Origin: Clostridia bacterium
GTDB lineage: Bacteria > Bacillota > Clostridia > TANB77 > RGIG9151
DNA: 64,000 bases
Direction: 5' to 3'
Assembly: GCA_017934955.1 (NCBI GenBank)
Contig: JAGBIO010000034.1
Coordinates: 2,123 to 66,122, forward strand
The notes beneath the pieces were generated by a model. The model saw only the letters and a program-made list of their open reading frames with translations. It was not told where the DNA came from and made no database searches. Positions 2,600 through 48,712 of this stretch are shown here, in pieces (within the stretch, counting starts at the first letter, position 1; each line of letters begins with the position of its first letter). The position numbers and the translations under genes are program-made.

Positions 2600-2908
2600 A
2601 TGAGCGAGAAGGTTTATACAATTCATGAAATAAAGACAATTTTGGCAGAAATTTTAAAAAACCTACCGGTTTATCGTGTGATTTTGTTTGGCTCTTATGC
2701 CCAAAATACTGCAACCGGGAATAGTGATTTGGATTTGGTCATTGATACACGTGAAACGTTAATGGGATTTAAATTATATAGTTTGATTACAAAGATAGAG
2801 GAAGTTTTTCAAAAGGAAATAGATGCTTTTGAGCAAACAGAAATTATTGAAAATTCAAAAATAGACGAGGAAATCAAGAAAACCGGGGTGATTGTGTATG
2901 AGAAATAA
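2600..2908 (+). CDS. mntA: Minimal nucleotidyltransferase (MNT) antitoxin of a HepT/MNT toxin-antitoxin pair.
   Basis: Carries LFGSYAQ...SDLDLVID, the Pol-beta-type nucleotidyltransferase G[SG]...D.D motif. Overlaps the next gene. Confidence 0.7.
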   Translation: MSEKVYTIHEIKTILAEILKNLPVYRVILFGSYAQNTATGNSDLDLVIDTRETLMGFKLYSLITKIEEVFQKEIDAFEQTEIIENSKIDEEIKKTGVIVYEK

Positions 2909-3248
2909 AGAATATATTTCTTTAGAGAAAATGATTGAATATATCGATAAAGCACTTTCGTATACAAAGGAATATACATTTGAAGAATTTTCTTCTGATG
3001 ATAAAACAATTGATGCAACGGTTTTTGCACTTAGTCAAGTCGGAGAATTAGTAAAGAATATTACGTTGGAAACAATGCAAAAATATTCTAATATTGAATG
3101 GAAAATGATAAAAGGATTAAGAAATCGAATTGTTCACGATTATGAAGGAATTAATCTAAAAAATATATGGTATATTGTAAAAAATGATGTGATTGAATTA
3201 AGAACAGAAATTAAAAAAATTATTGATGAAGAAAAATCGAGAAAATAA
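2898..3248 (+). CDS. hepT: HepT (DUF86) HEPN-type toxin.
   Basis: The RNRIVHDY sequence matches the R-x4-HxY HEPN motif. It overlaps the end of the MNT gene by 11 nt, the classic TA arrangement. Confidence 0.7.
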   Translation: MRNKEYISLEKMIEYIDKALSYTKEYTFEEFSSDDKTIDATVFALSQVGELVKNITLETMQKYSNIEWKMIKGLRNRIVHDYEGINLKNIWYIVKNDVIELRTEIKKIIDEEKSRK

Positions 3249-3292
3249 TACTACTTAAATAATAAAAAGAAAGCATATTTCTCAATCTAATT

Positions 3293-3335
3293 GTAGGGAC
3301 AGCATTCATGCTGTCCAAAGAAGAGGCAGTGACAT
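3293..3335. repeat. REP element (type A), GTAGGGACAGCATTCATGCTGTCC plus an AGGCAG-containing tail.
   Basis: A perfect 9-bp stem palindrome preceded by GTAG. Same family as the ~60 other copies in the window. Confidence 0.85.
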
Positions 3336-3337
3336 TT

Positions 3338-4072
3338 ATGGAGATTACGAGTTTGGAGAATAAGTCGGTGAAGTTGGCGGCTTCTTTGCAGAAGAAGAAG
3401 TACCGTGATTTGCATGGAAAGTTTTTGATTGAGGGAATGAAACTGATTCGTGAGGCGATGGCTTTCGGGTATGAGTTTGATTCTGTTTTTTATGTTCCCG
3501 ACAAGGTTGCGTATGATTTAGATTTACCGGCTTATGAGGTTTCCTATGAGATTTTGTGTAAGATTACCGATACTGTGACTCCGCAGGGAATTGCGGCGAT
3601 TGTGAAGGGGAAGGAACCGGATTTTGTGAAGCTTCAAAAAGCGCAACGTGTGGTGTATTTGGATCGGGTACAGGATCCGGGAAATGTGGGAACGATTATT
3701 CGGACGGCGGATGCGTTTGGGTTTGATGCGGTGATTTTGTCGAAGGAATGTGCGGATTTGTATTCTCCAAAAGTGCTTCGTTCCGCGATGGGGTCGGTGT
3801 TTCATTTAGAGATTTATCGGGATTTTTCGGCAGAGGATTTGATGAAATTGGGAAAAAAGATTTATTCTTCTTCGCTTGAGGCGTCGAATATGCCGGAGAA
3901 GATTGAGCTTCCTGCCGTTTTGGTGATTGGAAATGAGGGACAAGGTATTTCGGAGGAGATAAAAGCAGTAACGGACGAGTTTGTGAAGATTCCGATGGCG
4001 GGGAATGCAGAGTCGTTGAATGCGTCGATTGCGGCGGGGATTTTGTTGTATGAGTTTCGGTTGAAATATTGA
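3338..4072 (+). CDS. TrmH/SpoU-family RNA 2'-O-methyltransferase (RlmB-like).
   Basis: Contains SPOUT motifs (GNEGQGISEE, ESLNASIAAGILLYE). The ORF-track start at 3308 lies inside a REP element, so start is placed at ATG 3338. Confidence 0.7.
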   Translation: MEITSLENKSVKLAASLQKKKYRDLHGKFLIEGMKLIREAMAFGYEFDSVFYVPDKVAYDLDLPAYEVSYEILCKITDTVTPQGIAAIVKGKEPDFVKLQKAQRVVYLDRVQDPGNVGTIIRTADAFGFDAVILSKECADLYSPKVLRSAMGSVFHLEIYRDFSAEDLMKLGKKIYSSSLEASNMPEKIELPAVLVIGNEGQGISEEIKAVTDEFVKIPMAGNAESLNASIAAGILLYEFRLKY

Positions 4073-4122
4073 GAAGATTGATAGAGATAGTTGTTACTAT
4101 CCAACCTCAAATTTATAAAAAA

Positions 4123-4326
4123 GGCACAAATGTTGTGTGGACAGCATGAATGCTGTCCGTACGGATGAAAGAGGCAGTGGCATTGTAGGGACAGCATTTA
4201 TGCTGTCCAAAGAAAAAGCAGGACAGCATGAATGCTGTCCGTACGGATGAAAGAGGCAGTGACATTGTAGGGACAGCATTTATGCTGTCCAAAGAATAGG
4301 CAGAGGCTTAGAATTAGGACACAATA
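4123..4326. repeat. REP cluster of four type-A REPs in alternating orientation (two ~62-bp BIME-like units) plus a partial type-B REP.
   Basis: Direct reading shows ggacagcatgaatgctgtccgtacggatgaaagaggcagtgRcattgtagggacagcatttatgctgtccaaagaa, repeated twice. Confidence 0.9.
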
Positions 4327-4465
4327 CAGGGAACTACAGTAGAGATTACATCAAATGTAGTCTTTATTTTTATGTATATAATATTTTAGCTTGTTTAAAA
4401 ATAGTATCACAATGTTGACGATTGTAATACAATGTATTATAATTAAATTAAAGGGGTTGATTATT

Positions 4466-4684
4466 ATGACTATTTCGGTAAGATTAAGCGATGATGATAC
4501 AAGATTGATAAAAACTTATGCAGAAATGAATAATATGTTATTATCTGATTTGATTAGAATTGCAGTAATCGAGAAAATTGAAGATGAATATGATTTAAAA
4601 TGCTATGAACAAGCTCTTAAAGAGTATAAAGAAAATCCTAAAACTTATACATTAGATGAAGTAAAAAAGGAGTTGGGATTGTAG
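4466..4684 (+). CDS. relB: RelB/DinJ-like ribbon-helix-helix antitoxin.
   Basis: ATG at 4466 follows an AAAGGGG RBS. Small acidic protein with an N-terminal RHH-like strand (TISVRLSDDD). Stop overlaps the toxin start. Confidence 0.6.
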   Translation: MTISVRLSDDDTRLIKTYAEMNNMLLSDLIRIAVIEKIEDEYDLKCYEQALKEYKENPKTYTLDEVKKELGL

Positions 4685-4950
4685 TGAAATATAGAGTAGT
4701 ATTTACAGAAAAATCTAAAAAACAACTTTCAAAATTAGATAGATCAATTTCAGCTTTGATAGTTGGATGGATAGAAAAGAACATCGAAGGTTGTGAAAAT
4801 CCAAGGATATATGGTAAAGGATTATTAGGTAATAGAAGTGGACAATGGAGATATCGTATAGGAGATTATAGAGCGATATGTGAAATAAGGGATGATGAAA
4901 TAATAATTTTGGTTTTGGAAGTAGGTCATAGAAAGCATATATATGAATAG
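4684..4950 (+). CDS. relE: RelE/ParE-family mRNA interferase toxin.
   Basis: 88 aa ending ...YRIGDYRAICEIRDDEIIILVLEVGHRKHIYE, a typical RelE/ParE fold signature. Its 4-nt overlap with the antitoxin gene supports the pairing. Confidence 0.7.
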   Translation: MKYRVVFTEKSKKQLSKLDRSISALIVGWIEKNIEGCENPRIYGKGLLGNRSGQWRYRIGDYRAICEIRDDEIIILVLEVGHRKHIYE

Positions 4951-4984
4951 AAAATAATATAAGAATTAAGTGTTATAAAATGCA

Positions 4985-5033
4985 ACAATTTATTGTGTCC
5001 GTGGAATAGGCAGAGGCGTATAATTAGGACATA
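4985..5033. repeat. Partial type-B REP plus linker.
   Basis: Reads caatttattgtgtccgtggaataggcagaggcgtataattaggaca. Confidence 0.7.
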
Positions 5034-5085: not shown

Positions 5086-8000
5086 ATGATGAAGAATAAA
5101 TCGGACAGAGCGGTTTCTAAGATGAATCGGGATTTTTCGGCTATTTTTTCGGTGTATCGGAGGTTGAATGATAATCGAAAATTGAAGTCGAATTTGGTGC
5201 CGGCGAGTGAGTGGCTTTTGGATAATTTTTATATTGTGGAGGAGCATACCAAGCAGATTAAGAGGGATTTTACGAGTAAAATGTATCGGGATTTGCCATT
5301 GGTGGAGAGTGGATATACCAGAGCGTTTACAATTGCTCGTAAGATTGTGAGCGAGAATGATGCAAAAATTGATGAGAATGTGATTGAGAGTTTTATTAAT
5401 AAGTATGAAGAAGTGACGCCGCTTTATATGCGGGAGATTTGGTCGCTGGGCGTTTGTATTCGGATGGCGTTGATTGAGAAAATTCGGGAGATTAGCGATA
5501 AAATCAGTAAAACGTACAGCGAGTGGGAGCGTGCGGAGCGTTGGTTGGAAGAGTATAATTTGAATGCAGAGTTGAAACTTCCGGATGTTGGGGAGAATCC
5601 GTCTTTTTATGAGCATCTTTCGTATCAATTGCGGAGAATGGGAAAAAACGGTGTTGTGATATTAAACCGTATTGATCGGTACATAGAGAAATACGGGACG
5701 TCTTTGGAGTTGATTTCGCGGAAAGAGCATAGCGTGCAGGCGGCGATGAAGATTACTATCGGAAATTGCATCGGGAGCTTGAAGTCGATTTCTACGATTG
5801 ATTGGAATGAGTTGTTTAATCGTGTGAGCGAGATTGAACGAATTTTTTATTCGGAAAAATCCGGTGTGTATCCGAAGATGGATTTGGAGAGTAAAAATGT
5901 TTATCGAAGCCGGGTGGAGAAGATTGCAAAGGATTTTGCAATTTCAGAATTGCATGTGGCACGAAAAGTTTTGGCTTGTGCGGATGAAAATTTTGATGAT
6001 GAGAAATACGGGCATATCGGGTATTATTTGTTTGATAGAGAGGGGAGAAGAGAACTTCTTAACCGGTTGGATGTGAAGATTTCTTATGGGTATTTGTTTC
6101 GGGAAAATTTGAAGCAGAATCCGTTTGGAATTTATTTGTTGACGATTTTGCTGTTTTCGGCTTTGTCAACGGGACTTTTGGCATGGGTAATTAAGGCATT
6201 TTACGGTGGCTTTTCCGCTTGGAGTTATGTCGGCTTGGTGTTGGCTTTTCTGATTGCGTTTGATGGCGGGGTTTGCTTTGCGAATTATTGGTTTAGCAAA
6301 GTTTTTAAACCACGTGTGATTCCGCGGTTGGATTTTATGGAGGGTGTGCCGAAAGAGGCGACTACGATGCTGATTGTGCCGACGTTGCTGTCTTCGGAGA
6401 AGCGTGTGAGCGAGATGCTTTTGAATTTGGAAAAGTATGCGGCGGGAATCGATGACGATCATGTGTTTTATACATTAATCGGAGATGCGCGTGAGTATGA
6501 TTTGGAGCTTTGGGAAGCGGATGAGAAGATTATAAAGGTCGGCGAGGAGCTTGTGGCCGAGATGAATTTACGGGCAGGAAAGACGCGTTTCTTTTTTGTG
6601 TATCGAAAGCGATTTTTTAATGCCTCTGAGAATAAATGGCTTGGTTGGGAACGAAAAAGAGGGGCAATTTTGAAATTTAATGAGTTCCTTCAAGAGGGAA
6701 ATAAGGGTGATTACCGTTTCGTTTCGGAGGGATTTGAGGAGCTTCCTAAGATAAAGTATGTTTTGACGTTGGATGCGGATACTTTTGTTCCGATTAATGA
6801 GGCAAAAAAATTGATTGGTGCAATGGCGCATCCGCTGAATAAGCCGGTTTTGAATGAAGAAGGAACGGCGGTTGTTTCGGGGTATGGAATTATTCAGCCT
6901 CGTATCGGGATTGATGTGGTGAGTGCGAATAAGAGTCGCTTTTCAAAGATTTTTGCAGGAACCGGCGGAATTGATCCGTATGTGTGCGCGTCGTCGGATA
7001 TTTATCAGGATTTGTTTGGAGAGGCGATTTTTACCGGTAAAGGAATTTATGATATTGCTGTTTTCCAGAAGGTATTAGCCGATACGATTCCGGATAATGC
7101 GATTTTGAGCCATGATTTATTGGAGGGTTCTTATTTACGGGCGGGTCTTGCGACGAATATTGAGTTGATTGACGGATACCCTGCTCGCTATAATGCGTAT
7201 GCGATGAGAGCGCATCGCTGGGCGAGAGGGGATTGGCAGGTCTTACCGTGGCTTTCGGGGAGAGTAAGGAATCGAAATCATGAATTGGTGAAAAATCCGA
7301 TTGATGGGGTTTCGAAGTGGAAGATTTTCGATAATTTGCGTCGTACGTTGACAGCGCCGTTGATGATGCTTTTAATCTTTTTGTCGTTTTTTGTGTTACC
7401 GGAGTCCGCGTTACTTTGGAGTGTGTTTGCGGTTGTTTTGGGGATTCGTGGAAATAAAAAGCAATTTTTGTATCAGTTGCTGTTTTTGCCGTTTCAAGCG
7501 TCTTTGATGCTGAATGCGGTGGTTGTAACGCTTTATCGAATGTTTTTTGTGAAGAAGAATTTATTGGAATGGGTTACCGCAGCGGATATGGAGACGAAGC
7601 TAAAAAATACCGTCGGGAGTTTTTATCGTTTGATGAATCGCAGCCTTTTGATTTCGACGGTGATTTTCTTGGTAGCGTACTTTGTGAAGGGCGATGCGAT
7701 TTCGATTTATTTTTCGGCGTTCTTGTTCTTTTTATGGTGGATTGCGCCGCTTGTGGCATTTCATATCAGCTTATCGATTCGAGAACGACAGGAACGTTTG
7801 GATAACGCGGAAATTGAGGAATTACGAGAATTTGCAAAGAGAACGTGGTCGTATTTTGATACCTTGATGAATGAGGAAAATCATTTTTTACCGCCGGATA
7901 ATTTTCAAGAGGAACCGCCGAATGGGGTGGCGTATCGGACTTCTCCGACGAATATCGGATTGGGATTGTTGGCGATTATCAGTGCGTATGATCTTGGTTT

Positions 8001-10077
8001 TATTGATGTGAACAATATGATTTTGCGTTTGGAAAAGAGTATTCATACCATTGAAAAGTTGGACAAGTGGAATGGTCATTTGTTGAATTGGTATAATACC
8101 AAGACATTGGTACCACTTTTCCCACGATATATTTCTACAGTAGACAGCGGAAACTTTTTGGCGTATGCGATTACGGCGAAAGAGGCTCTGAGGAAGATTT
8201 TGAAGGAAGAAAAAGAGATTGATGTTGTTCTTGTGCATAGTCTGATGAGCAAGTTGGAGTCTTTTATCAAAGAGATGAATTTTGCGGTTTTGTATGATGC
8301 GAAAAAGAATATTTTTTCGATTGGCTATAATTTGGAGGATGGGCGTTTAACGAATTCTTATTATGATTTGTTGGCATCGGAAGCGCGACAGACGAGTTTT
8401 TTGGCGGTGTGCCGGCATGAGGTCCCGTTAAAGCATTGGTTTTTGTTAGGAAGAAGTTTGACAAAAATGAATCGTGAAAAAGGGCTTATTTCTTGGACGG
8501 GTACCATGTTTGAATATTTGATGCCGTTGTTGGTGATGAAGAATTATCCTGAAACGTTGTTAAATGAAACGTATGATTTTGTGATTAAAAGTCAGATGGA
8601 GTATGCGAAGAGAAAAGGTGTCGTTTGGGGAATTTCCGAGTCGGCGTTTTATAATTTTGATATTAATTTGAATTATCAGTATAAGGCGTTGGGAGTTCCG
8701 TGGCTTGGATTGAAACGAGGATTGTTGGAGGATACGGTGATTTCGCCGTATTCCACGATGTTGGCACTTATGGTGAAGCCGAAGACGGCGTTTAAGAATT
8801 TGTTGGCGTTAAAGAAGTTAAATATGTTGGGACAATATGGTTTTTATGAGTCGATTGATTTTACGCCGGGACGTTTGAAGGTTTTAGAGGGGGATAGGAA
8901 TTATGCGCAGGTTAAGAGTTACATGGCGCATCATCAGGGAATGAGTCTTGTGGCGATTAATAATGTGATTAATAATTTTGTGATGCAGGAGAGATTCCAC
9001 CGCGATATCCGGGTGATGTCGGGGGAAGTATTATTACAGGAGAAAGTGCCGGGAGATATTATCTATACAAAGAGTGATAAGGAGAAGGTGGTCCCGGAGA
9101 AGAATGTGGTTTATGAGAGTGTGAATACCGATCGTTTAATTGAAATCGATACAGAAACACTTCCTTCTTGTAACGTTCTTACGAATGGTGCTTTCTTTAC
9201 ACAAATTAATGACAGAGGAGTGGGATTGGTGCGCTATCGGAATTGGGACCTTTCGCGTTATCGTAGTAATACGTTTGCAGAGAATTACGGACCGCTCTTT
9301 TATATTCGCTGCTTAAATGATTCACAAGTTTGGTCAGCAACGTACAAGCCGTTTTTGAAGGAACCGGATAAGTATTTTGTGGTTTTTTCGGGAGATAAGG
9401 CGAAGTTTGTGAGACGTGACGGAGATGTTGAGACGGTGACAGAAGTGATTGTGGCGACGGAAGATAATTTGGAGATTCGCAGAATTTCTTTGGTGAATCA
9501 TGGAACCGCAGAGGTGGATTTTGAGATTACTTCTTATGTAGAGCTGGTAACAGGCGATCAAAACGGGGATATTGCGCATCGAGCGTTTTATAGTATGTTT
9601 TTGACGACGGAGATGCAAAAGGAAGTTTTGATGGCGAAACGACAGAAAAGACGTTCTTGTGAGGAAGATTTGGTTTCCTATCAGCATTCTTTTGTGATTG
9701 GCGAAAGTTTTGGGGATTTTCAGTTTGAAACGGATCGAATGAAGTTTATTGGCAGGTATCGGAATACCGAGACGCCGAATGTGATTTTGGAAGGAAAGCC
9801 GCTGTCGGGGACGGTTGGTGCGGTTTTGGATCCGATTTTTTCGGAACGGCGGTATTTGCGTGTGAAACCGGGCGAGACAGGAAAGGTGATTTTTATTACG
9901 GGTATCGAGAAAGATGTGGATAAAGTTTTAGAGGTTGTGGATAAGTATCAATCGGAGGAAGCGGTTCAAAGAGCATTTCGTTTGGCATATGCAAGAAATC
10001 AGGTGGAGCTGTCTTATTTGAATGTGACGTCGGAGGAAATTCGGGATTTTGATGATATGATGAAGTTTTTAATATAA
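5086..10077 (+). CDS. Cyclic beta-1,2-glucan synthase (Cgs/NdvB/ChvB)-like protein, N-terminal 1663 aa. Contains a GT84-type glycosyltransferase domain, membrane segments, a glucoamylase-like middle region and a GH94 N-terminal beta-sandwich domain.
   Basis: GT-A motifs are present (TLDADTF as DxD, RAHRWARGDWQ as QxxRW). Two blocks of transmembrane helices. The C-terminal ~330 aa resemble the N-domain of cellobiose/chitobiose phosphorylases. Confidence 0.6.
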   Translation: MMKNKSDRAVSKMNRDFSAIFSVYRRLNDNRKLKSNLVPASEWLLDNFYIVEEHTKQIKRDFTSKMYRDLPLVESGYTRAFTIARKIVSENDAKIDENVIESFINKYEEVTPLYMREIWSLGVCIRMALIEKIREISDKISKTYSEWERAERWLEEYNLNAELKLPDVGENPSFYEHLSYQLRRMGKNGVVILNRIDRYIEKYGTSLELISRKEHSVQAAMKITIGNCIGSLKSISTIDWNELFNRVSEIERIFYSEKSGVYPKMDLESKNVYRSRVEKIAKDFAISELHVARKVLACADENFDDEKYGHIGYYLFDREGRRELLNRLDVKISYGYLFRENLKQNPFGIYLLTILLFSALSTGLLAWVIKAFYGGFSAWSYVGLVLAFLIAFDGGVCFANYWFSKVFKPRVIPRLDFMEGVPKEATTMLIVPTLLSSEKRVSEMLLNLEKYAAGIDDDHVFYTLIGDAREYDLELWEADEKIIKVGEELVAEMNLRAGKTRFFFVYRKRFFNASENKWLGWERKRGAILKFNEFLQEGNKGDYRFVSEGFEELPKIKYVLTLDADTFVPINEAKKLIGAMAHPLNKPVLNEEGTAVVSGYGIIQPRIGIDVVSANKSRFSKIFAGTGGIDPYVCASSDIYQDLFGEAIFTGKGIYDIAVFQKVLADTIPDNAILSHDLLEGSYLRAGLATNIELIDGYPARYNAYAMRAHRWARGDWQVLPWLSGRVRNRNHELVKNPIDGVSKWKIFDNLRRTLTAPLMMLLIFLSFFVLPESALLWSVFAVVLGIRGNKKQFLYQLLFLPFQASLMLNAVVVTLYRMFFVKKNLLEWVTAADMETKLKNTVGSFYRLMNRSLLISTVIFLVAYFVKGDAISIYFSAFLFFLWWIAPLVAFHISLSIRERQERLDNAEIEELREFAKRTWSYFDTLMNEENHFLPPDNFQEEPPNGVAYRTSPTNIGLGLLAIISAYDLGFIDVNNMILRLEKSIHTIEKLDKWNGHLLNWYNTKTLVPLFPRYISTVDSGNFLAYAITAKEALRKILKEEKEIDVVLVHSLMSKLESFIKEMNFAVLYDAKKNIFSIGYNLEDGRLTNSYYDLLASEARQTSFLAVCRHEVPLKHWFLLGRSLTKMNREKGLISWTGTMFEYLMPLLVMKNYPETLLNETYDFVIKSQMEYAKRKGVVWGISESAFYNFDINLNYQYKALGVPWLGLKRGLLEDTVISPYSTMLALMVKPKTAFKNLLALKKLNMLGQYGFYESIDFTPGRLKVLEGDRNYAQVKSYMAHHQGMSLVAINNVINNFVMQERFHRDIRVMSGEVLLQEKVPGDIIYTKSDKEKVVPEKNVVYESVNTDRLIEIDTETLPSCNVLTNGAFFTQINDRGVGLVRYRNWDLSRYRSNTFAENYGPLFYIRCLNDSQVWSATYKPFLKEPDKYFVVFSGDKAKFVRRDGDVETVTEVIVATEDNLEIRRISLVNHGTAEVDFEITSYVELVTGDQNGDIAHRAFYSMFLTTEMQKEVLMAKRQKRRSCEEDLVSYQHSFVIGESFGDFQFETDRMKFIGRYRNTETPNVILEGKPLSGTVGAVLDPIFSERRYLRVKPGETGKVIFITGIEKDVDKVLEVVDKYQSEEAVQRAFRLAYARNQVELSYLNVTSEEIRDFDDMMKFLI

Positions 10078-10078
10078 T

Positions 10079-10177
10079 TTAGGACAGCATGAATGCTGTC
10101 CGTACAGGAAGATAGAGATTGAAATGGATAAAGGTTGCACGATCCTTGTAGGGACACAATTTATTGTGTCCGTTGAG
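10079..10177. repeat. REP pair (type A then type B) lying between the two cgs-like ORFs.
   Basis: Reads aggacagcatgaatgctgtccgtacagg ... gtagggacacaatttattgtgtccgttg. Confidence 0.9.
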
Positions 10178-10199
10178 TATATCTATGTGGAGGATAGAA

Positions 10200-12914
10200 A
10201 TGAGAGATACGAAGAGTATTCTTTGGAGTTATGGAATTTCCGGAGATTTACCGATTGTTTTGATTATTGTTCGAAAATATGAAGATTTGGATGTAATTGA
10301 TGAGTTAATCAAGGCACATGAATATTGGAGATTGAAGGGACTTTTCATTGATTTGGTTGTGATTAGCGATGAGGAAATGAGTTATCATCATCCTTTGTGG
10401 AATAGTATTTTTGATATTATTACTTCGGGGCATTTGATTAATCTACAGAATGTGAGTGGCGGTATTTTTTTGCTGCGGGGAGAGATTTTGTCGAAGGAGG
10501 ATATTTCAAAAATTCGGGAGATTGCGGCGATTGTGGCGGAGAATGGGAAAATTCTTTTGGAGGAAGAGTTGTATGGAGATAATAAGAAGTGCGGTTTTGA
10601 GCAGGAGAGTGTCCCGGAGAAGAAATGTTTGGAGAAGCAAAAGTTGGAGTTTTTTAACGGAATTGGCGGGTTTGATGCAGAGAAAAAAGAATATGTTGTT
10701 TATTTGAATAAACAGCTTTTTCCGTTACTTCCATGGAGCAATGTTTTGGCAAATCCGAATTTCGGAACAATAACGACGGAGTCCGGTGGCGGTTATACGT
10801 GGGCATTGAACAGTCATGAATTTCGTTTGACACCGTGGTTAAACGATAGCGTGAGTGACGGACAGGGAGAGTTTATTGAGATTTTCGATATCGATAAAAA
10901 TCTTTCGTTTTCACCTTATTGGTTGCCATTTCGAAATCCTTTGGAGTATGAAGTGAGATTTGGACTTGGATATACAATTTATACGACGCAGGCAGATGAT
11001 TTGAAGATTACGTTGACGGTGTTTGTGCCTTTGGAAGAGAATGTGAAAATTTCTTTATTGCGAATTGAAAATTTGGCGGATTCTCCGAAACGACTTGCGT
11101 TAAAGTATTATTTGAATCCGGTTTTGGCAGACCATAATCATAAGCGAGAGAATCGGATTGAGAGTTTTTTTGACGGTCATCGATTGACTTTTCGAAATTC
11201 TTTTGAAAAGACATTTATGGCAAATACGGTATATTCGCAGATTTCAGGGAATACAAGTTTCTTTCGAAATCATGAGTTTTATGTCTTGGAAAGTGACTTT
11301 GAAATTGCAGGGAAATCTGGAGCAGAGAAAGTTTGTTTATTGGGCATTTTGGAAGAGGACAGAAAAAACTTTTTGGATGCTTCTACTTGCCGAGAAGAAC
11401 TTAAAAAAGCGGAGGATTTTTATCAAAAAGATATTTTGCGGAGTCAAGTGGATACACCGGATTCGGCGATGAATCTATTGTTAAACAATTTTTTATTGTA
11501 TCAGACGTACAATTGCCGCATTTTAGCGCGAAGTTCTTTTTATCAGTCGGGTGGCGCCATCGGGTTTCGCGATCAGTTGCAGGATGTTCTGCCGTTTGCG
11601 TATTTGAAACCGGAGATTGTGAAGAAGCAGATTTTATTACATGCAAAACATCAGTTTGAGGAAGGCGATGTTCTTCATTGGTGGCATGAAGATTTGATGC
11701 GGGGTACGAGAACACGTTTTTCTGATGATTTGTTATGGTTGGTGTATGTGACGAATGAGTATGTGAATGTGACGCAGGATATGGATTTATTGGATTGCCA
11801 AGTGAATTTTGCGAAGGCACCGTTATTGGATGAGGGCGAGGATGAGCGATATTTGGAGTATTCTTATTCTGAGAATAGTGCGTCGGTTTTTTCGCATTGT
11901 GTGTTGGCGATTGAGAGAAGTTTGAAGTATGGGGAACATGGCTTGGCGTTAATGGGGTCCGGCGATTGGAATGATGGGATGAATGAGGTTGGAAATAAAG
12001 GAAAAGGGGAGAGTGTTTGGCTTTCTTGGTTTTTGTATAAGATCCTTGCGGATTTTTCTCCGATTTGTCGAAGTCGCGGAAGAAATGATTTGGCGGAGCG
12101 ATATTCGAAGGAGGCGGCAATTTTACGTGATAATATTAATAAAAATGCTTGGGATGGAGAATGGTATAAGCGAGCCTTTTTTGATGATGGGACAGCGTTA
12201 GGTTCGATTTCGAATGAAGAGTGTAAAATCGATTCGATTTCGCAGTCTTGGAGTGTGATTTCGGACGCGGGAGAAGAGGAAAAACGTCGAAGGGCGATGA
12301 GTTCGTTAGAACATTATTTGATGGATGATGAAAATGGATTGATTAAGCTGTTGTCGCCGGCGTTTAAGGATTGCGATTTGGAACCGGGATATATTAAGAG
12401 TTATCCAGAGGGAATTCGGGAAAACGGTGGACAGTATACGCATGCGGCAATTTGGGCAGGAATTGCGTTTGCGTTGATGAAGGAAACGGATAAAGCGAAT
12501 AAAGTTTTCGAGATGTTGAATCCGATTAATCATGCGAGAACGGATAGCGAGATGAAGAAGTATAAGGCGGAGCCGTATGTAATTGCGGCGGATGTTTATA
12601 CGAATCCGCTACATGTAGGACGTGGCGGTTGGAGTTGGTACACCGGTGCGGCGTCTTGGATGTATCGATTTGGGGTTGAGTATATTTTGGGATTCCGGAA
12701 AAGGGGAGAACGTGTGATGATGGAGCCTTGCGTGAAGACGGATTGGAGCGATTATGGTTTGACATATCGCTATAAAGATACGGTTTATCATATTCGGGTA
12801 TTCTTGAAAGGGGATAAGAAGAACAAAGTGATTGTGGATCATCATATTCAGGATGGAAATTCCTTTGAGTTGGTGAATGATGGAGAGGAACATTCGATTG
12901 AGGTTTATCGGTAG
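10200..12914 (+). CDS. GH94 glycoside phosphorylase-like catalytic domain, forming the C-terminal portion of the Cgs-like system.
   Basis: ATG at 10200 lies 5 nt after a GGAGGA RBS. Contains LWSYGISGDLPIV and an (alpha/alpha)6-barrel region typical of the cellobiose phosphorylase family. Confidence 0.6.
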   Translation: MRDTKSILWSYGISGDLPIVLIIVRKYEDLDVIDELIKAHEYWRLKGLFIDLVVISDEEMSYHHPLWNSIFDIITSGHLINLQNVSGGIFLLRGEILSKEDISKIREIAAIVAENGKILLEEELYGDNKKCGFEQESVPEKKCLEKQKLEFFNGIGGFDAEKKEYVVYLNKQLFPLLPWSNVLANPNFGTITTESGGGYTWALNSHEFRLTPWLNDSVSDGQGEFIEIFDIDKNLSFSPYWLPFRNPLEYEVRFGLGYTIYTTQADDLKITLTVFVPLEENVKISLLRIENLADSPKRLALKYYLNPVLADHNHKRENRIESFFDGHRLTFRNSFEKTFMANTVYSQISGNTSFFRNHEFYVLESDFEIAGKSGAEKVCLLGILEEDRKNFLDASTCREELKKAEDFYQKDILRSQVDTPDSAMNLLLNNFLLYQTYNCRILARSSFYQSGGAIGFRDQLQDVLPFAYLKPEIVKKQILLHAKHQFEEGDVLHWWHEDLMRGTRTRFSDDLLWLVYVTNEYVNVTQDMDLLDCQVNFAKAPLLDEGEDERYLEYSYSENSASVFSHCVLAIERSLKYGEHGLALMGSGDWNDGMNEVGNKGKGESVWLSWFLYKILADFSPICRSRGRNDLAERYSKEAAILRDNINKNAWDGEWYKRAFFDDGTALGSISNEECKIDSISQSWSVISDAGEEEKRRRAMSSLEHYLMDDENGLIKLLSPAFKDCDLEPGYIKSYPEGIRENGGQYTHAAIWAGIAFALMKETDKANKVFEMLNPINHARTDSEMKKYKAEPYVIAADVYTNPLHVGRGGWSWYTGAASWMYRFGVEYILGFRKRGERVMMEPCVKTDWSDYGLTYRYKDTVYHIRVFLKGDKKNKVIVDHHIQDGNSFELVNDGEEHSIEVYR

Positions 12915-14958: not shown

Positions 14959-17325
14959 TTAATCCATTAAAATGATAAGACTGGTATAATATTTTGAAGA
15001 TTTTTCTTTGTATACGAAAACTACCACCTCATCGTCTTCGTCTAAAACATCTTCGTAGTCATCTGCATAGTAATATAAATCGCCTTCCGGGTCGTCGGAA
15101 GATCTTTCAATGATGACACAATCATCTGCAATTTCAAAGGAGTATTCTTCGCCGTCATCGTCTTCGATTACGAGCTCGTCGTCGTATAATTCCGTGATAT
15201 ATCCGAAAACATAACCGTCGTCGATATTACTGCTGCTTGAAGAGGAGGAATTGAAGGCTGATTCTTTTGCAGCTAATTCAATTTTTTCAATATAATCATC
15301 ATCGTCTAAGGTCAGTCTTAAGAAAAGACCTTTTTTATAAAGATAAGATGTTGTAGAAACTGCAGAATAAGTCTTTGATACGGCGTTGTAGGAGAAGGTT
15401 GTCTTATTATCGAAATAGTAATCTTCGTCGCCTTCATCATATTCACCAAGGTAATCGTCCATTAAAACGTATTCTTTTCCGTCTTCATCTTCAATAATGA
15501 GATAACCGTCGGATTTACCGACTTCTACGATTTCACCGACAATTTTTTCCGGAGTTTCATCATCTGTTAAAGTGGATTCTTTTGAAGCAACTTCGATTTT
15601 AGTAAGATAATCGTTTTTATCCATTGTAATTTTTACATAGTAGCCTTTTTTATAAAGGTAAGATGTAGTTGCAATCGATTTATAAGATTTTGAAGACCCG
15701 TTATAAGTAAAGTCAGTATCGTCATCGAAATAGTAATCTTCGTCACCGTCGGAATATTCATCAATGTAGTCATCCATTAAAGTATATTTTTCGCCGTCAT
15801 CATCTTCGATAATAATGTAACCTTCGTCGTCATCCGCTTTTGTGATTTTTCCGATAATGGTTTCTTCAGAAGAAGTAAATTCAGATTTTTTGGAAGCAAC
15901 TTCGATTTTCGTAAGGTAATCATTTTTATCCACTGTAATCTTTACATAGTAACCCTTTTTGTAGAGATAAGATGTTGTGGCAATCGATTTATAAGTCTTT
16001 GAAGAACCATTGTAGGTAAATTTGGTATCATCATCGAAATAGTAATCTTCGTCGTTATCGGAATACTCATCGATATAGTCGTCCATTAAAGTATATTTTT
16101 CGCCGTCATCATCTTCGATAATGAGATAACCTTCGTCATCATCTGCTTTTGTAATCTTTCCGATAATGGTCTCTTCGGTTGCTGTTGCTTTTTTCGTTTC
16201 GATTTTAGTAATCGTATCCTCATTTTCTACCGTTAAAGTGATAGAATAATTCTTTTTCAAAGCTGAGGAAGCTGTTGAAGTTTTTCCGTCTAAATAGAAT
16301 TTTGTAGAAGATGTGTAATTATAGGTTGTTTTCTTTGCATTTTTTGTAACAGTGACCGTCTTTTTGGAAGTATCAAAGTCGGAAATTGTACCACTGACGG
16401 TTGTAATTACATCTTTTGTCATCTTCATCATGGTAATGTATGTACTGTCTTTCAAGGTAACGGTTACCGTGAGTCCTTTTTCCATTTCACTTGACGTTTT
16501 CTTCGTGGAATTTACATAGAATTCCGTGGAAGAATCGTATTCGTATTCTTCGGTATTTCCGGAAGAGTCTTTAATAAATACTGTTTTTAAAGTGGTATCA
16601 ATTTTAGTGATAGTACCGTTTAACACGGTAACTTTTCCTGTTGAAGTATTGGAATTTGAAGAGTTATTCGAAGTATCCGGTTTAATATCTACTTTTTTAT
16701 AAATTCTTTGTAAAATACAAGCCGCTTGCGCTCTTGTTACATTTGTTTTCGGCGAGAAATTTTCACTATCTACGCCGGCCATAATTTTTTCGGTGGAAAC
16801 GTAATAAACGTATGGCTTAGCACTTGGCGTGATGGAAGAAGCATCTGCGAAAGGAAGAATAATTAAAGATTTCGACTTTACTTCTTCAGCTTTTCCCATT
16901 ACTTTTGTAATTAAAACTGCCATTTCTTCACGAGTAATCGGTGCGTTGACTTGATCCGCAGAAAGCAGATTATCTAAATCACTTGTTTCTAACACTTTTG
17001 TTCCCAATAAATAGGCAACATCTTTTTTATATTGGGTTGTATATTTTGAAAGCGTATCGTAATAAGTTTCTAAGTATTTGTTTGCTGCATCCGGATAATT
17101 GTTAATGCCGGCGATTCTTGCGAGTAAAATCAAACTCTCGATTTTTGAAATGTTTTTGGATGGACGAAACGTACCGTCGGTATAGCCGGAAATAATTTTT
17201 TGTTCTACCATCTCTTCTACTACTTTTTGTGCCCAGTGTGTTTCGGGTAAATCCGAAAAAGTTTGAGCTAACGATGTTGATAATAGCATTGCTGCCGCAC
17301 ATGACAGTGCAATAAGTTTTTTCAT
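14959..17325 (-). CDS. Cell-surface protein with an N-terminal S-layer-homology (SLH) region and C-terminal highly acidic tandem repeats.
   Basis: Signal peptide MKKLIALSCAAAML is present. The SLH-like segment reads FSDLPETHWAQKVVEEM...ISGYTDGTFRP. There are three ~105-aa repeats rich in D/E (DDDGEKYTLMDDYIDEYSD). AGGAGG RBS precedes ATG at 17325. Confidence 0.7.
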   Translation of the reverse strand: MKKLIALSCAAAMLLSTSLAQTFSDLPETHWAQKVVEEMVEQKIISGYTDGTFRPSKNISKIESLILLARIAGINNYPDAANKYLETYYDTLSKYTTQYKKDVAYLLGTKVLETSDLDNLLSADQVNAPITREEMAVLITKVMGKAEEVKSKSLIILPFADASSITPSAKPYVYYVSTEKIMAGVDSENFSPKTNVTRAQAACILQRIYKKVDIKPDTSNNSSNSNTSTGKVTVLNGTITKIDTTLKTVFIKDSSGNTEEYEYDSSTEFYVNSTKKTSSEMEKGLTVTVTLKDSTYITMMKMTKDVITTVSGTISDFDTSKKTVTVTKNAKKTTYNYTSSTKFYLDGKTSTASSALKKNYSITLTVENEDTITKIETKKATATEETIIGKITKADDDEGYLIIEDDDGEKYTLMDDYIDEYSDNDEDYYFDDDTKFTYNGSSKTYKSIATTSYLYKKGYYVKITVDKNDYLTKIEVASKKSEFTSSEETIIGKITKADDDEGYIIIEDDDGEKYTLMDDYIDEYSDGDEDYYFDDDTDFTYNGSSKSYKSIATTSYLYKKGYYVKITMDKNDYLTKIEVASKESTLTDDETPEKIVGEIVEVGKSDGYLIIEDEDGKEYVLMDDYLGEYDEGDEDYYFDNKTTFSYNAVSKTYSAVSTTSYLYKKGLFLRLTLDDDDYIEKIELAAKESAFNSSSSSSSNIDDGYVFGYITELYDDELVIEDDDGEEYSFEIADDCVIIERSSDDPEGDLYYYADDYEDVLDEDDEVVVFVYKEKSSKYYTSLIILMD

Positions 17326-17575
17326 AAGTATCCTCCTTACGTAAAACACAATAAATTTTACACCATCATTCTATCATAAAACATTGGAGAATGGTAGTGT
17401 TTTTCATTTTTTCAACTTGGAAAATTTTCTTAACACATCTCATTAGACGAATTTTGGCAAAATTAAGTTTCACAAATTTGGAATTTTAAATTTTTTTTTC
17501 AAAATTTGTTAAGTAAGTTTGAAAAATGCCGATATGTTGGTTAGATAAATCAAAAGACAAGTGGAGGTTAGGAAT

Positions 17576-46143: not shown

Positions 46144-46960
46144 GCAGGACAGCATGGATGAGGAAGAAACTTCGAATGGACAGCATGAATGCTGTCCGTA
46201 CAGAAAGAGGCAGAAATTTTATATGAATAGAATGAAAGAAGCAGGAACTTTGTAGGGACAGCATTTATGCTGTCCACATACAAGGAAAAAAATAAAAAAC
46301 AGAGGACCGGAGAAATGGAGTAAAAGTTGAAGTTTAATGGTAGAAAAGTAATTAGAAAGTCCGGGTATAATTATTCGTTTTCAGGTTGTTATTTTATTAC
46401 AATTTGTTCGAAGGAGAAAAAGTTTATTTTTGGCGATATAAAAGAACGAAAAATGTATTTAAATGAAGTTGGGAAACTTACGAAATTAGAAATTCTAAGG
46501 TTAAATAATGAAAAAGATGTAGATGTTGTTAAATTTGTTATCATGCCCAATCATGTGCATTTATTAATTTTCTTAAAAAGTGATGCGAATTGTTTTATAG
46601 AACGTAAAGGGAAAAAATTAGAAGATGTAAGAGTACTTGCGGAGGCACGTATTCCGAAAATAATACAACAATTTAAATCAAGGGTTTCAAGATGTGTTGG
46701 AACAAGCATTTGGCATTCGAGATATCATGATCATATTGTGAGAAATCAGCGGGAATATAAGATGATATATAATTATATAGAGAATAATCCGATGAATTGG
46801 GACAAAGATTGCTATCGATAGGAGGTAGAATGGACAGCATGAATGCTGTCCGTACAGAGGGAAAGAGACAGGAACTTTGAATGGACAGCATGAATGCTGT
46901 CCGTACAGAAGGAAAGAGACAGAAACTTTGAATGGACAGCGTTTATGCTGTCCACAGACA
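46144..46960. mobile_element. REPtron-like block: a REP cluster (46144..46290), the RAYT gene, then a second REP cluster (46822..46960).
   Basis: The gene sits immediately between two sets of inverted type-A REPs of the same family that is dispersed through the window. Confidence 0.7.
46327..46821 (+). CDS. IS200/IS605-like Y1 HuH transposase, interpreted as a REP-associated tyrosine transposase (RAYT).
   Basis: HuH motif reads IMPNHVHLLI. The C-terminal region reads WHSRYHDHIVRNQREYKMIYNYIENNPMNW, with the Tyr and Q/NNP motif of the Y1_Tnp family. 164 aa single ORF with no TnpB. TTG start 6 nt after GGAG. Confidence 0.7.
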   Translation: MKFNGRKVIRKSGYNYSFSGCYFITICSKEKKFIFGDIKERKMYLNEVGKLTKLEILRLNNEKDVDVVKFVIMPNHVHLLIFLKSDANCFIERKGKKLEDVRVLAEARIPKIIQQFKSRVSRCVGTSIWHSRYHDHIVRNQREYKMIYNYIENNPMNWDKDCYR

Positions 46961-48394: not shown

Positions 48395-48712
48395 AAAAGG
48401 CAGGAATTATGTAGGGTGGACAGCATGAATGCTGTCCGTACGGAAGAAAGAGGCAGGAATTATGTAGGGTGGACAGCATGAATGCTGTCCGTACGGAAGA
48501 AAGAGGCAGGAATTATGTAGGGTGGACAGCATGAATGGTGTCCGTACGGAAGAAAAGCAGAAATTTTGTGGGATGGACAGCATGAATGGTGTCCGTACGG
48601 AAGAAAAGCAGAAATTTTGTGGGATGGACAGCATGAATGGTGTCCGTACGGAAGAAAAGCAGAAATTTTGTGGGATGGACAGCATTTATGCTGTCCGTAG
48701 AAGAGGCAGAAA
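48395..48712. repeat. Tandem array of seven REPs, all in one orientation. Three 50-bp units are followed by three 45-bp units carrying the variant GGACAGCATGAATGGTGTCC, then one more.
   Basis: Identical inter-repeat sequences, so these are REP tandems and not CRISPR. They translate as an artificial mutS N-terminal extension in the ORF track. Confidence 0.9.

Follow-up and report, generated by a model that had tools for sequence, protein, structure and literature searches.

The synthase of cyclic beta-1,2-glucan (Cgs), a virulence and symbiosis factor of about 320 kDa, is hard to handle due to its size. The closest described system is the enzyme of Agrobacterium tumefaciens, a single chain that runs from an N-terminal domain through a GT84 glycosyltransferase with transmembrane helices and a GH189/GH144-like cyclase to a phosphorylase module, which begins at residue 1536 and consists of GP1, RFL (residues 1847-2012), GP2 and GP3 (PMC10901819). 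In its structure GP1-GP2-GP3 form one rigid body, and RFL touches the N-terminal domain (PMC10901819). The engineered truncation Cgs1-1846 is inactive, while the D2528A variant is nearly wild type with only a minor effect, which points to a scaffolding function of the C-terminal part (Sedzicki et al. 2024, PMC10901819). SOGP, a GH94 phosphorylase acting on beta-1,2-glucans, has the GP1-GP2-GP3 arrangement as well, in one soluble chain with its own GP1-type N-domain and without RFL.

REPs of Escherichia coli, which include intercistronic ones such as that of malE-malF, stabilise mRNA. The GTAG REPs are short palindromes with stems of 5-13 bp, small loops and an unpaired GTAG (or GTAC) at one end, which are extragenic, reach high copy number and form inverted dimers (spacers of 20-60 bp) and tandem arrays (Di Nocera et al. 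2013, PMC3733652). A further trait of this super-family is a matching RAYT transposase (Y1/IS200-like, PF01797) in the genome. The 2013 survey found them only in Proteobacteria, Cyanobacteria, Chloroflexi and the PVC group, with none reported in Firmicutes (PMC3733652).

The window, as we call the whole 64,000-nt stretch of DNA that was analysed, comes from an uncultured Clostridia bacterium, has a G+C content of 40%, and contains a cgs-like gene in the form of two ORFs with a REP pair between them, as an earlier note on this DNA had recognised. The distance from the stop of the first ORF to the start of the second is 122 bp, of which the hairpin doublet takes up 90 bp (10082-10171); the 86 bp given in the earlier note is thus corrected. 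The features of the locus are as follows.

5086-10077, + strand: ORF1, the cgs large subunit gene, 1663 aa with the C-terminus ...DDMMKFLI; N-terminal domain, GT84 with transmembrane helices, GH189/GH144-like cyclase and first GH94-type supersandwich (GP1)
10075-10077, + strand: TAA stop of the large subunit gene, at the conserved fission point
10082-10107, + strand: REP hairpin A, GGACAGCA-TGAA-TGCTGTCC (10082-10101) followed by a GTAC tag; starts 4 nt after the stop
10108-10147, + strand: purine-rich linker of the REP doublet, from an alignment of 8 window doublets
10148-10171, + strand: REP hairpin B, a GTAG tag followed by GGACACAA-TTTA-TTGTGTCC (10152-10171)
10189-10194, + strand: Shine-Dalgarno sequence GGAGGA of ORF2, 5 nt before the ATG at 10200, with a counterpart in relatives L003, L006 and L002 (see below)
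10200-12914, + strand: ORF2, the cgs small subunit gene, 904 aa with an ATG start; Rossmann-fold-like RFL (about aa 1-110), second GH94 supersandwich GP2 (about aa 150-350), and GP3, made up of the GH94 catalytic (alpha/alpha)6 domain plus C-terminal sandwich

Our reading of this locus, to which we assign a probability of roughly 0.85, is that it encodes a two-subunit Cgs, that the split goes back to a single gene fission in the common ancestor of one clade of gut- or rumen-type Clostridia, all uncultured, and that the REP doublet arrived later. The furthest-upstream in-frame start of ORF2 is a TTG at 10164, and the ATG at 10200 yields the 904-aa product that agrees with all homologues; this product is identical to the database protein P0001. 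The existing labels of the two halves are “DUF3131 domain-containing protein” and “hypothetical protein”.

Aligned to the A. tumefaciens enzyme (8rf9_A), ORF1 covers index 48-1843 and ORF2, from its residue 6, covers index 1865-2773, with E-values of 0 and 2.4e-188, so that both ORFs together account for index 48-2773. The chain index equals the numbering of Sedzicki et al. 2024 minus 19, as derived from the LDADT motif (D605/D607 versus D624/D626), and in the numbering of that paper ORF1 ends at about residue 1862 and residue 6 of ORF2 lies at about residue 1884 (PMC10901819). Because the aligned ORF ends fall near the start of RFL (1847-2012), the alignments place the break at the GP1/RFL junction, about 16-37 residues past the published boundary, with GP1 on ORF1 and RFL-GP2-GP3 on ORF2. 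The earlier note had put the break between the GH94 N-domain and the catalytic domain, whereas the canonical N-domain (GP2) in fact stays with the catalytic domain. Pfam searches agree with this division: ORF1 contains Glycoamylase (PF10091, aa 1092-1305) and a complete GH94 supersandwich (PF06165, aa 1360-1606), and ORF2 has its own, second GH94 supersandwich (aa 178-348) followed by the GH94 catalytic domain (PF17167, aa 410-831, E = 1e-121). The cyclase region of ORF1 also matches the cyclisation domain of the T. italicus enzyme (8wy1_A, E = 2e-115). An AlphaFold2 model of ORF2 (mean pLDDT 72) opens with a beta-alpha-beta-alpha-beta-alpha unit at residues 1-110, consistent with RFL, and its best fold match per Foldseek is 8rf0_A over about 930 columns.

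The residues reported as catalytic or priming in PMC10901819 and PMC11842490 were then sought in the two products. ORF1 has the conserved motifs LDADT, SHDLLEG, HRWARGDWQ, GIDPYV, VDSGN, DLLASE and WGISE. For GT84 we found LTLDADT (D624/D626), SHDLLEGS (D739), AHRWARGDWQ (the (Q/H)RW motif), GIDPYV and the priming tyrosine Y694, and for GH189 cyclisation DLLASE and WGISE (E1300/E1386 in the A. tumefaciens enzyme, E1356/E1442 in TiCGS) together with VDSGN (D1104). ORF2 keeps the GH94 phosphorylase motifs GDWNDGMN and GFRDQLQD, with the catalytic acid D2528 and with D2393. Every listed residue is therefore retained (D624, D626, D739 and Y694 of the glycosyltransferase, D1104, E1300 and E1386 of the cyclase, D2393 and D2528 of the phosphorylase), and the domain order is that of A. 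tumefaciens Cgs. The one departure is that a single polypeptide of about 2.7-2.9 kaa is replaced by two genes of 1663 and 904 aa, with a summed length of 2567 aa, about 110 aa below the nearest fused relatives. Since the locus has every catalytic feature of Cgs that we looked for but is made of two polypeptides, we would file it as a split-gene variant of Cgs rather than a canonical Cgs.

The split is shared by all of the nearest homologues. The earlier note had proposed checking whether the best homologues are single proteins of about 2600-2800 aa; instead, the best 42 ORF2 clusters (50-100% identity) are all stand-alone, 40 of them complete at 899-936 aa and two truncated fragments of 885 and 700 aa, and the best 18 ORF1 clusters (58-100% identity) are likewise all stand-alone, at 1652-1687 aa. 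Longer fused forms appear in the ORF2 search only at 46% identity or below, and in the ORF1 search the first fused proteins are P0139 (2679 aa) and P0141 (2676 aa) at 54% identity. In a profile search of genome contigs (GTDB) with the ORF2 alignment, all matches listed were at 45% identity or below, and none of them belonged to the split clade. Fused Cgs is the norm: when homologues are clustered at 50% identity, 112 of the best 150 representatives reach a length of 2400 aa or more. A search of the literature for split Cgs found no description, absence there being no proof.

The break falls at the same residue throughout. All 18 ORF1 products end in ...[KR][FY]L[IV] before the stop, and the complete ORF2 products sampled (13 of the 42 clusters, and P0003) begin with M-x7-W-x2-GISGD, this motif lying a few residues later where the start was called further upstream. 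In the fused P0139 and P0141 the corresponding junction reads ...MMSYLIFNKPIKKHQLAENIGRKGLWSNGISGD, also given as ...EEMMSYLIFNKPIKKHQLAENIGRKGLWSNGISGD, and in other fused Cgs it reads ...ILYLSPLRRKxExxIKxNRKGQxGLWxYGISGD. The start of the L003 small subunit, MKNTKGILW, is still alignable to the KNxKGQxxLW of the fused forms, and about 13-20 linker residues are missing relative to fused relatives and to A. tumefaciens Cgs. The ORF1 and ORF2 genes are adjacent in every locus inspected (L001-L007). The spacers of the relatives, with the identity of their ORF2 to that of the window, are as follows.

L001, 83%, the closest relative: 141 bp with rearranged REP-family elements
L002, 75%: 58 bp, without a hairpin repeat, with a ribosome-binding site (RBS)
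L003 (GCA_963635575.1), 60%: 16 bp, TTATGGAGGAGAAAAG, REP-free, with an RBS
L006 and L007, 58%: 15 bp with GGAGAG, REP-free
L004, 50%: 144 bp with an unrelated hairpin

A simple tree of the ORF1 region, computed by neighbour joining with BLOSUM62 and without support values, places the split clade as monophyletic and sister to the fused P0139/P0141, and the other outgroups, of about 2.7-2.9 kaa, are all fused. As the split and the break residue are common to the relatives, several of which have REP-free spacers with an RBS, and the split clade is monophyletic, comparison of the sequences indicates that the fission is ancestral to the clade and older than the REP doublet. Relative to L002, dN/dS is 0.078 for ORF1 and 0.108 for ORF2, values that are approximate, dS of about 1.55 being near saturation; both halves are under purifying selection. 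The other option raised in the earlier note, a synthase that in this lineage is naturally made from two pieces, is thus supported, as is its description of both ORFs as undegraded.

The genes around cgs were also noted. Just upstream, window 2892-4950 holds toxin-antitoxin-type genes, namely a HepT-like ribonuclease gene (2892-3248) and, at 4391-4950, a DUF6290 gene together with one for a ParE toxin. Between them lies a SpoU methylase gene, the first ATG of which (3308) is inside a REP hairpin, which probably puts the true start at about 3338. A gene for an SLH-domain protein is found at 14959-17349 (- strand); L001, L002 and L006 likewise have such a gene near cgs, and BofA and DUF2508 genes go with it in several relatives. 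The loci are thus partly syntenic, which supports their orthology.

It could be asked whether the two products still form one enzyme. They might have become independent after the fission, with ORF1 a self-sufficient synthase-cyclase and ORF2 a free cytoplasmic, SOGP-like catabolic beta-1,2-glucan phosphorylase. Phosphorylase catalysis is non-essential in A. tumefaciens Cgs, judging by the minor effect of D2528A (PMC10901819), stand-alone GH94 phosphorylases are common, and a 122-bp spacer with hairpins would permit uncoupled expression. The domain content of ORF2 argues otherwise: it is without GP1, which belongs to the phosphorylase fold of Cgs as well as of LpSOGP and has stayed on ORF1, and it retains RFL, the subdomain seen touching the N-terminal domain in the structure of the A. 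tumefaciens enzyme. In addition, the two genes are neighbours in all inspected genomes, often only 15-16 nt apart, and truncation at residue 1846 inactivates A. tumefaciens Cgs. The ORF2 model does match SOGP in fold (E = 3e-24), and in Foldseek alignments it is much nearer to the Cgs C-terminus (about 35% identity versus 15% for SOGP); a sequence search of ORF2 against solved structures gave no hit to SOGP. We regard independent enzymes as unlikely, and prefer the two-subunit Cgs.

The REP doublet was examined against the known properties of GTAG REPs. The window has 36 matches to GGACAGCAnnnnTGCTGTCC and about 18 sites of GGACACAAnnnnTTGTGTCC, versus 0 expected in each case, which agrees with the two REP types reported in the earlier note. 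Altogether 54 GTAG/GTAC-tagged hairpins versus 0 expected, with 8-bp stems and 4-nt loops, lie between window positions 3297 and 63925 of the 64 kb, in two stem variants (GGACAGCA and GGACACAA). GTAG stands directly 5' of the TTTA-loop copies, and the partner copies have GTAC. The layout hairpin - GTAC - linker - GTAG - hairpin occurs at least 8 times, and besides the 8 aligned doublets there are tandem arrays at 4139-4290, 46832-46953 and 48418-48696 with a period of about 51-53 bp. In the cgs spacer, hairpin B is inverted relative to hairpin A, so that the pair is a tail-to-tail heterodimer in the terms of PMC3733652. Both hairpins fold as predicted, with perfect 8-bp stems for hairpin A, and no T-run follows either; no terminator-like site was found in the spacer. 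The window copies thus share with GTAG REPs the stem length, the terminal tag, the high copy number, the extragenic position and the inverted dimers and tandem arrays; like GTAG REPs and the intercistronic REPs of E. coli, they can also lie just downstream of a stop codon inside an operon. They differ from the GTAG REPs of the 2013 survey in residing in a Clostridia genome and in that one member of each dimer has GTAC instead of GTAG. A half-REP (CAACAATTTATTGTGTCCGTGG) is present at 4981-5000, about 85 bp upstream of the cgs start; with the doublet in the spacer, the cgs operon is therefore flanked and interrupted by one repeat family.

The earlier note had suggested that the REP insertion split the gene and may have supplied the restart. 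On this account the doublet transposed into a continuous cgs, broke it, and by chance provided or exposed a restart site. The doublet does lie exactly between the two ORFs, beginning 4 nt after the stop, and intragenic REP insertions are documented in other bacteria (PMC3733652). The comparison with relatives is against it. Adjacent two-gene orthologues with the same break residue and spacers free of REPs (15, 16 and 58 bp), an arrangement that the earlier note itself held to speak against an insertion, were found in L002, L003, L006 and L007, which share the stop position, start position and RBS. The split is moreover common to clusters at 50-58% identity, with synonymous sites saturated, and with the doublet deleted the stop would remain and the roughly 13 lost linker codons would still be absent. 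Exact hairpin-A or hairpin-B patterns had no match in the loci of the nine relatives (L001-L009), although the L001 spacer contains diverged and rearranged copies of the family, which we characterised by reading and folding. As a recent event the splitting of cgs by the REP is already refuted by these comparisons, and overall we consider it very improbable. An ancient insertion of a mobile element, since erased, could in principle have caused the fission originally.

The doublet is instead best described, from the spacer comparisons, as a later insertion into an existing spacer and as an ordinary intergenic insertion. The GGAGGA and ATG of ORF2 were correctly located in the earlier note, but they did not come from the REP: the RBS is positioned 17 nt 3' of hairpin B and corresponds to that of REP-free relatives, so that the RBS and ATG are native. 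In L001 the left half of a hairpin-A copy begins 4 nt after the stop, as in the window, and the remainder is arranged differently. The window genome and L001 probably inherited the first REP insertion from their common ancestor. L001 2926-3102 holds this truncated hairpin-A copy together with a palindrome that is near-perfect, about 110 nt long (-93.8 kcal/mol, z = -13) and made of REP-family halves, with another palindrome nested inside in the style of a REPIN or MITE. An unrelated nested hairpin, AGGGACG...GTCTCGTTTATAAATGAGAC...CGTCCCT, is found in the cgs spacer of L004 (6857-7000), which is on the 50%-identity branch of the split clade. Palindromic elements seem to have landed repeatedly in the intercistronic cgs gap.

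Apart from the clade discussed so far, three further apparent splits of Cgs were looked at. In L008 (6001-13916, JGI 3300010162), on a distant branch of the tree, Cgs is split between RFL and GP2 into 1849 and 788 aa, with overlapping stop and start (TAATG) and GGAGGTG ahead as its own RBS. This looks like a real, independent fission at a different boundary, the sole such case among the apparent splits examined. In L009 (10800-10830, Thermohalobacter berrensis GCA_003609645.1), annotated as 1604 and 1247 aa, an in-frame TAA gives the context GYSKK-stop-ELQITRWRSD, versus GYSKYKNIFISRWRND in the fused P0139. As this stop lies inside the GP1 domain, L009 was rejected as a domain-boundary split, and it is probably a pseudogene, a sequencing error or a readthrough site. 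In L095 (1098-9753, on a 326-kb contig) the Cgs homologue is in pieces of 1296, 315 and 1250 aa, and a neighbouring AI-2E transporter gene is also in two pieces. Fragmentation being contig-wide, L095 was rejected as a true fission and is probably the result of assembly indel errors; it is a warning that short “stand-alone” GH94 database matches are often artefacts.

Since such cases occur in relatives (L095 and Thermohalobacter berrensis), it has to be considered for the window too that an ordinary one-piece cgs is decaying as a pseudogene, or has only been broken by a frameshift or nonsense error in assembly or sequencing. This is the least probable of the explanations weighed here, and hardly credible: four independent metagenome assemblies (three of the XIEF21 series, from ruminant gut, plus one more) match the window identically over 3.7 kb, spacer included, the break point is kept in 18 ORF1 and 42 ORF2 clusters, an RBS of its own precedes the downstream gene in all lineages, dN/dS is about 0.1 in both halves and the catalytic residues are all intact. 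Recoding by frameshift or readthrough to join the ORFs was also rejected, as the spacers contain stops and the frame offset from ORF1 to ORF2 differs among relatives: it is 2 for the window, 1 for L002 and L003, and 0 for L004, L006 and L007.

For the two-subunit Cgs we propose the following history and mode of working. In the fission, the basic linker of about 13-20 residues that leads from GP1 to RFL in fused relatives would have been lost, its place being taken by a stop codon, then a short spacer that contains a Shine-Dalgarno sequence, and then a new start codon. The ORF1 product would be the membrane-embedded part, in which GT84 initiates and elongates the chain and the GH189-like domain cyclises it, with GP1 attached, and the ORF2 product would be a soluble RFL-GP2-GP3 protein. 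We infer that the two physically associate, the one basis for this being the single-chain A. tumefaciens structure: the ORF2 product would dock non-covalently onto GP1 and the N-terminal domain of ORF1, and the docking would rebuild the rigid phosphorylase module, which trims chain length and scaffolds the enzyme. ORF1 ends just after GP1 and so is a natural near-equivalent of Cgs1-1846; by analogy with that inactive truncation it may be inactive alone. Cgs1-1846 differs in that it simply lacks the C-terminal part, whereas at the window locus the next gene supplies the missing part.

The GTAG/GTAC-tagged doublet was inserted later, in the lineage of the window genome and its closest relative, stretching the spacer from about 15-60 nt to 122 nt. 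Because the hairpins are without a T-run and no terminator features are present, transcription probably reads through both. The hairpins may alter the expression of ORF1 relative to ORF2: they could make the upstream mRNA more stable, uncouple translation, or cause ribosomes to stall at the stop codon, which lies 4 nt upstream. That ribosomes stall where a REP is near a stop codon is cited in PMC12306157. By analogy with the REPs of E. coli, the doublet may shift the ORF1:ORF2 ratio and abolish the tight coupling that spacers of 15-16 nt allow. For the combined proposal, that RFL-GP2-GP3 docks in trans and that the cell tunes the ratio of the subunits, and with it the control of ring size or the scaffolding, by way of the REP-remodelled spacer, we would give even odds.

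We would like to note that fissions of genes at linkers between domains are common in evolution, so that the novelty of this case is modest, and that the account in which a REP split the gene is wrong. The locus is also a caution for annotation, given the labels that the two halves carry. For the Cgs family, the conserved fission after GP1 suggests that the “rigid” phosphorylase module can assemble from two chains, and it offers a natural counterpart of Cgs1-1846, dead in Agrobacterium, with the missing part supplied in trans. It also suggests a separate expression route for the soluble length-control part. If the docking and tuning proposal is true, the scaffolding role proposed for the C-terminal part of A. 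tumefaciens Cgs can be supplied in trans, and these Clostridia would provide a tractable split system for biochemistry.
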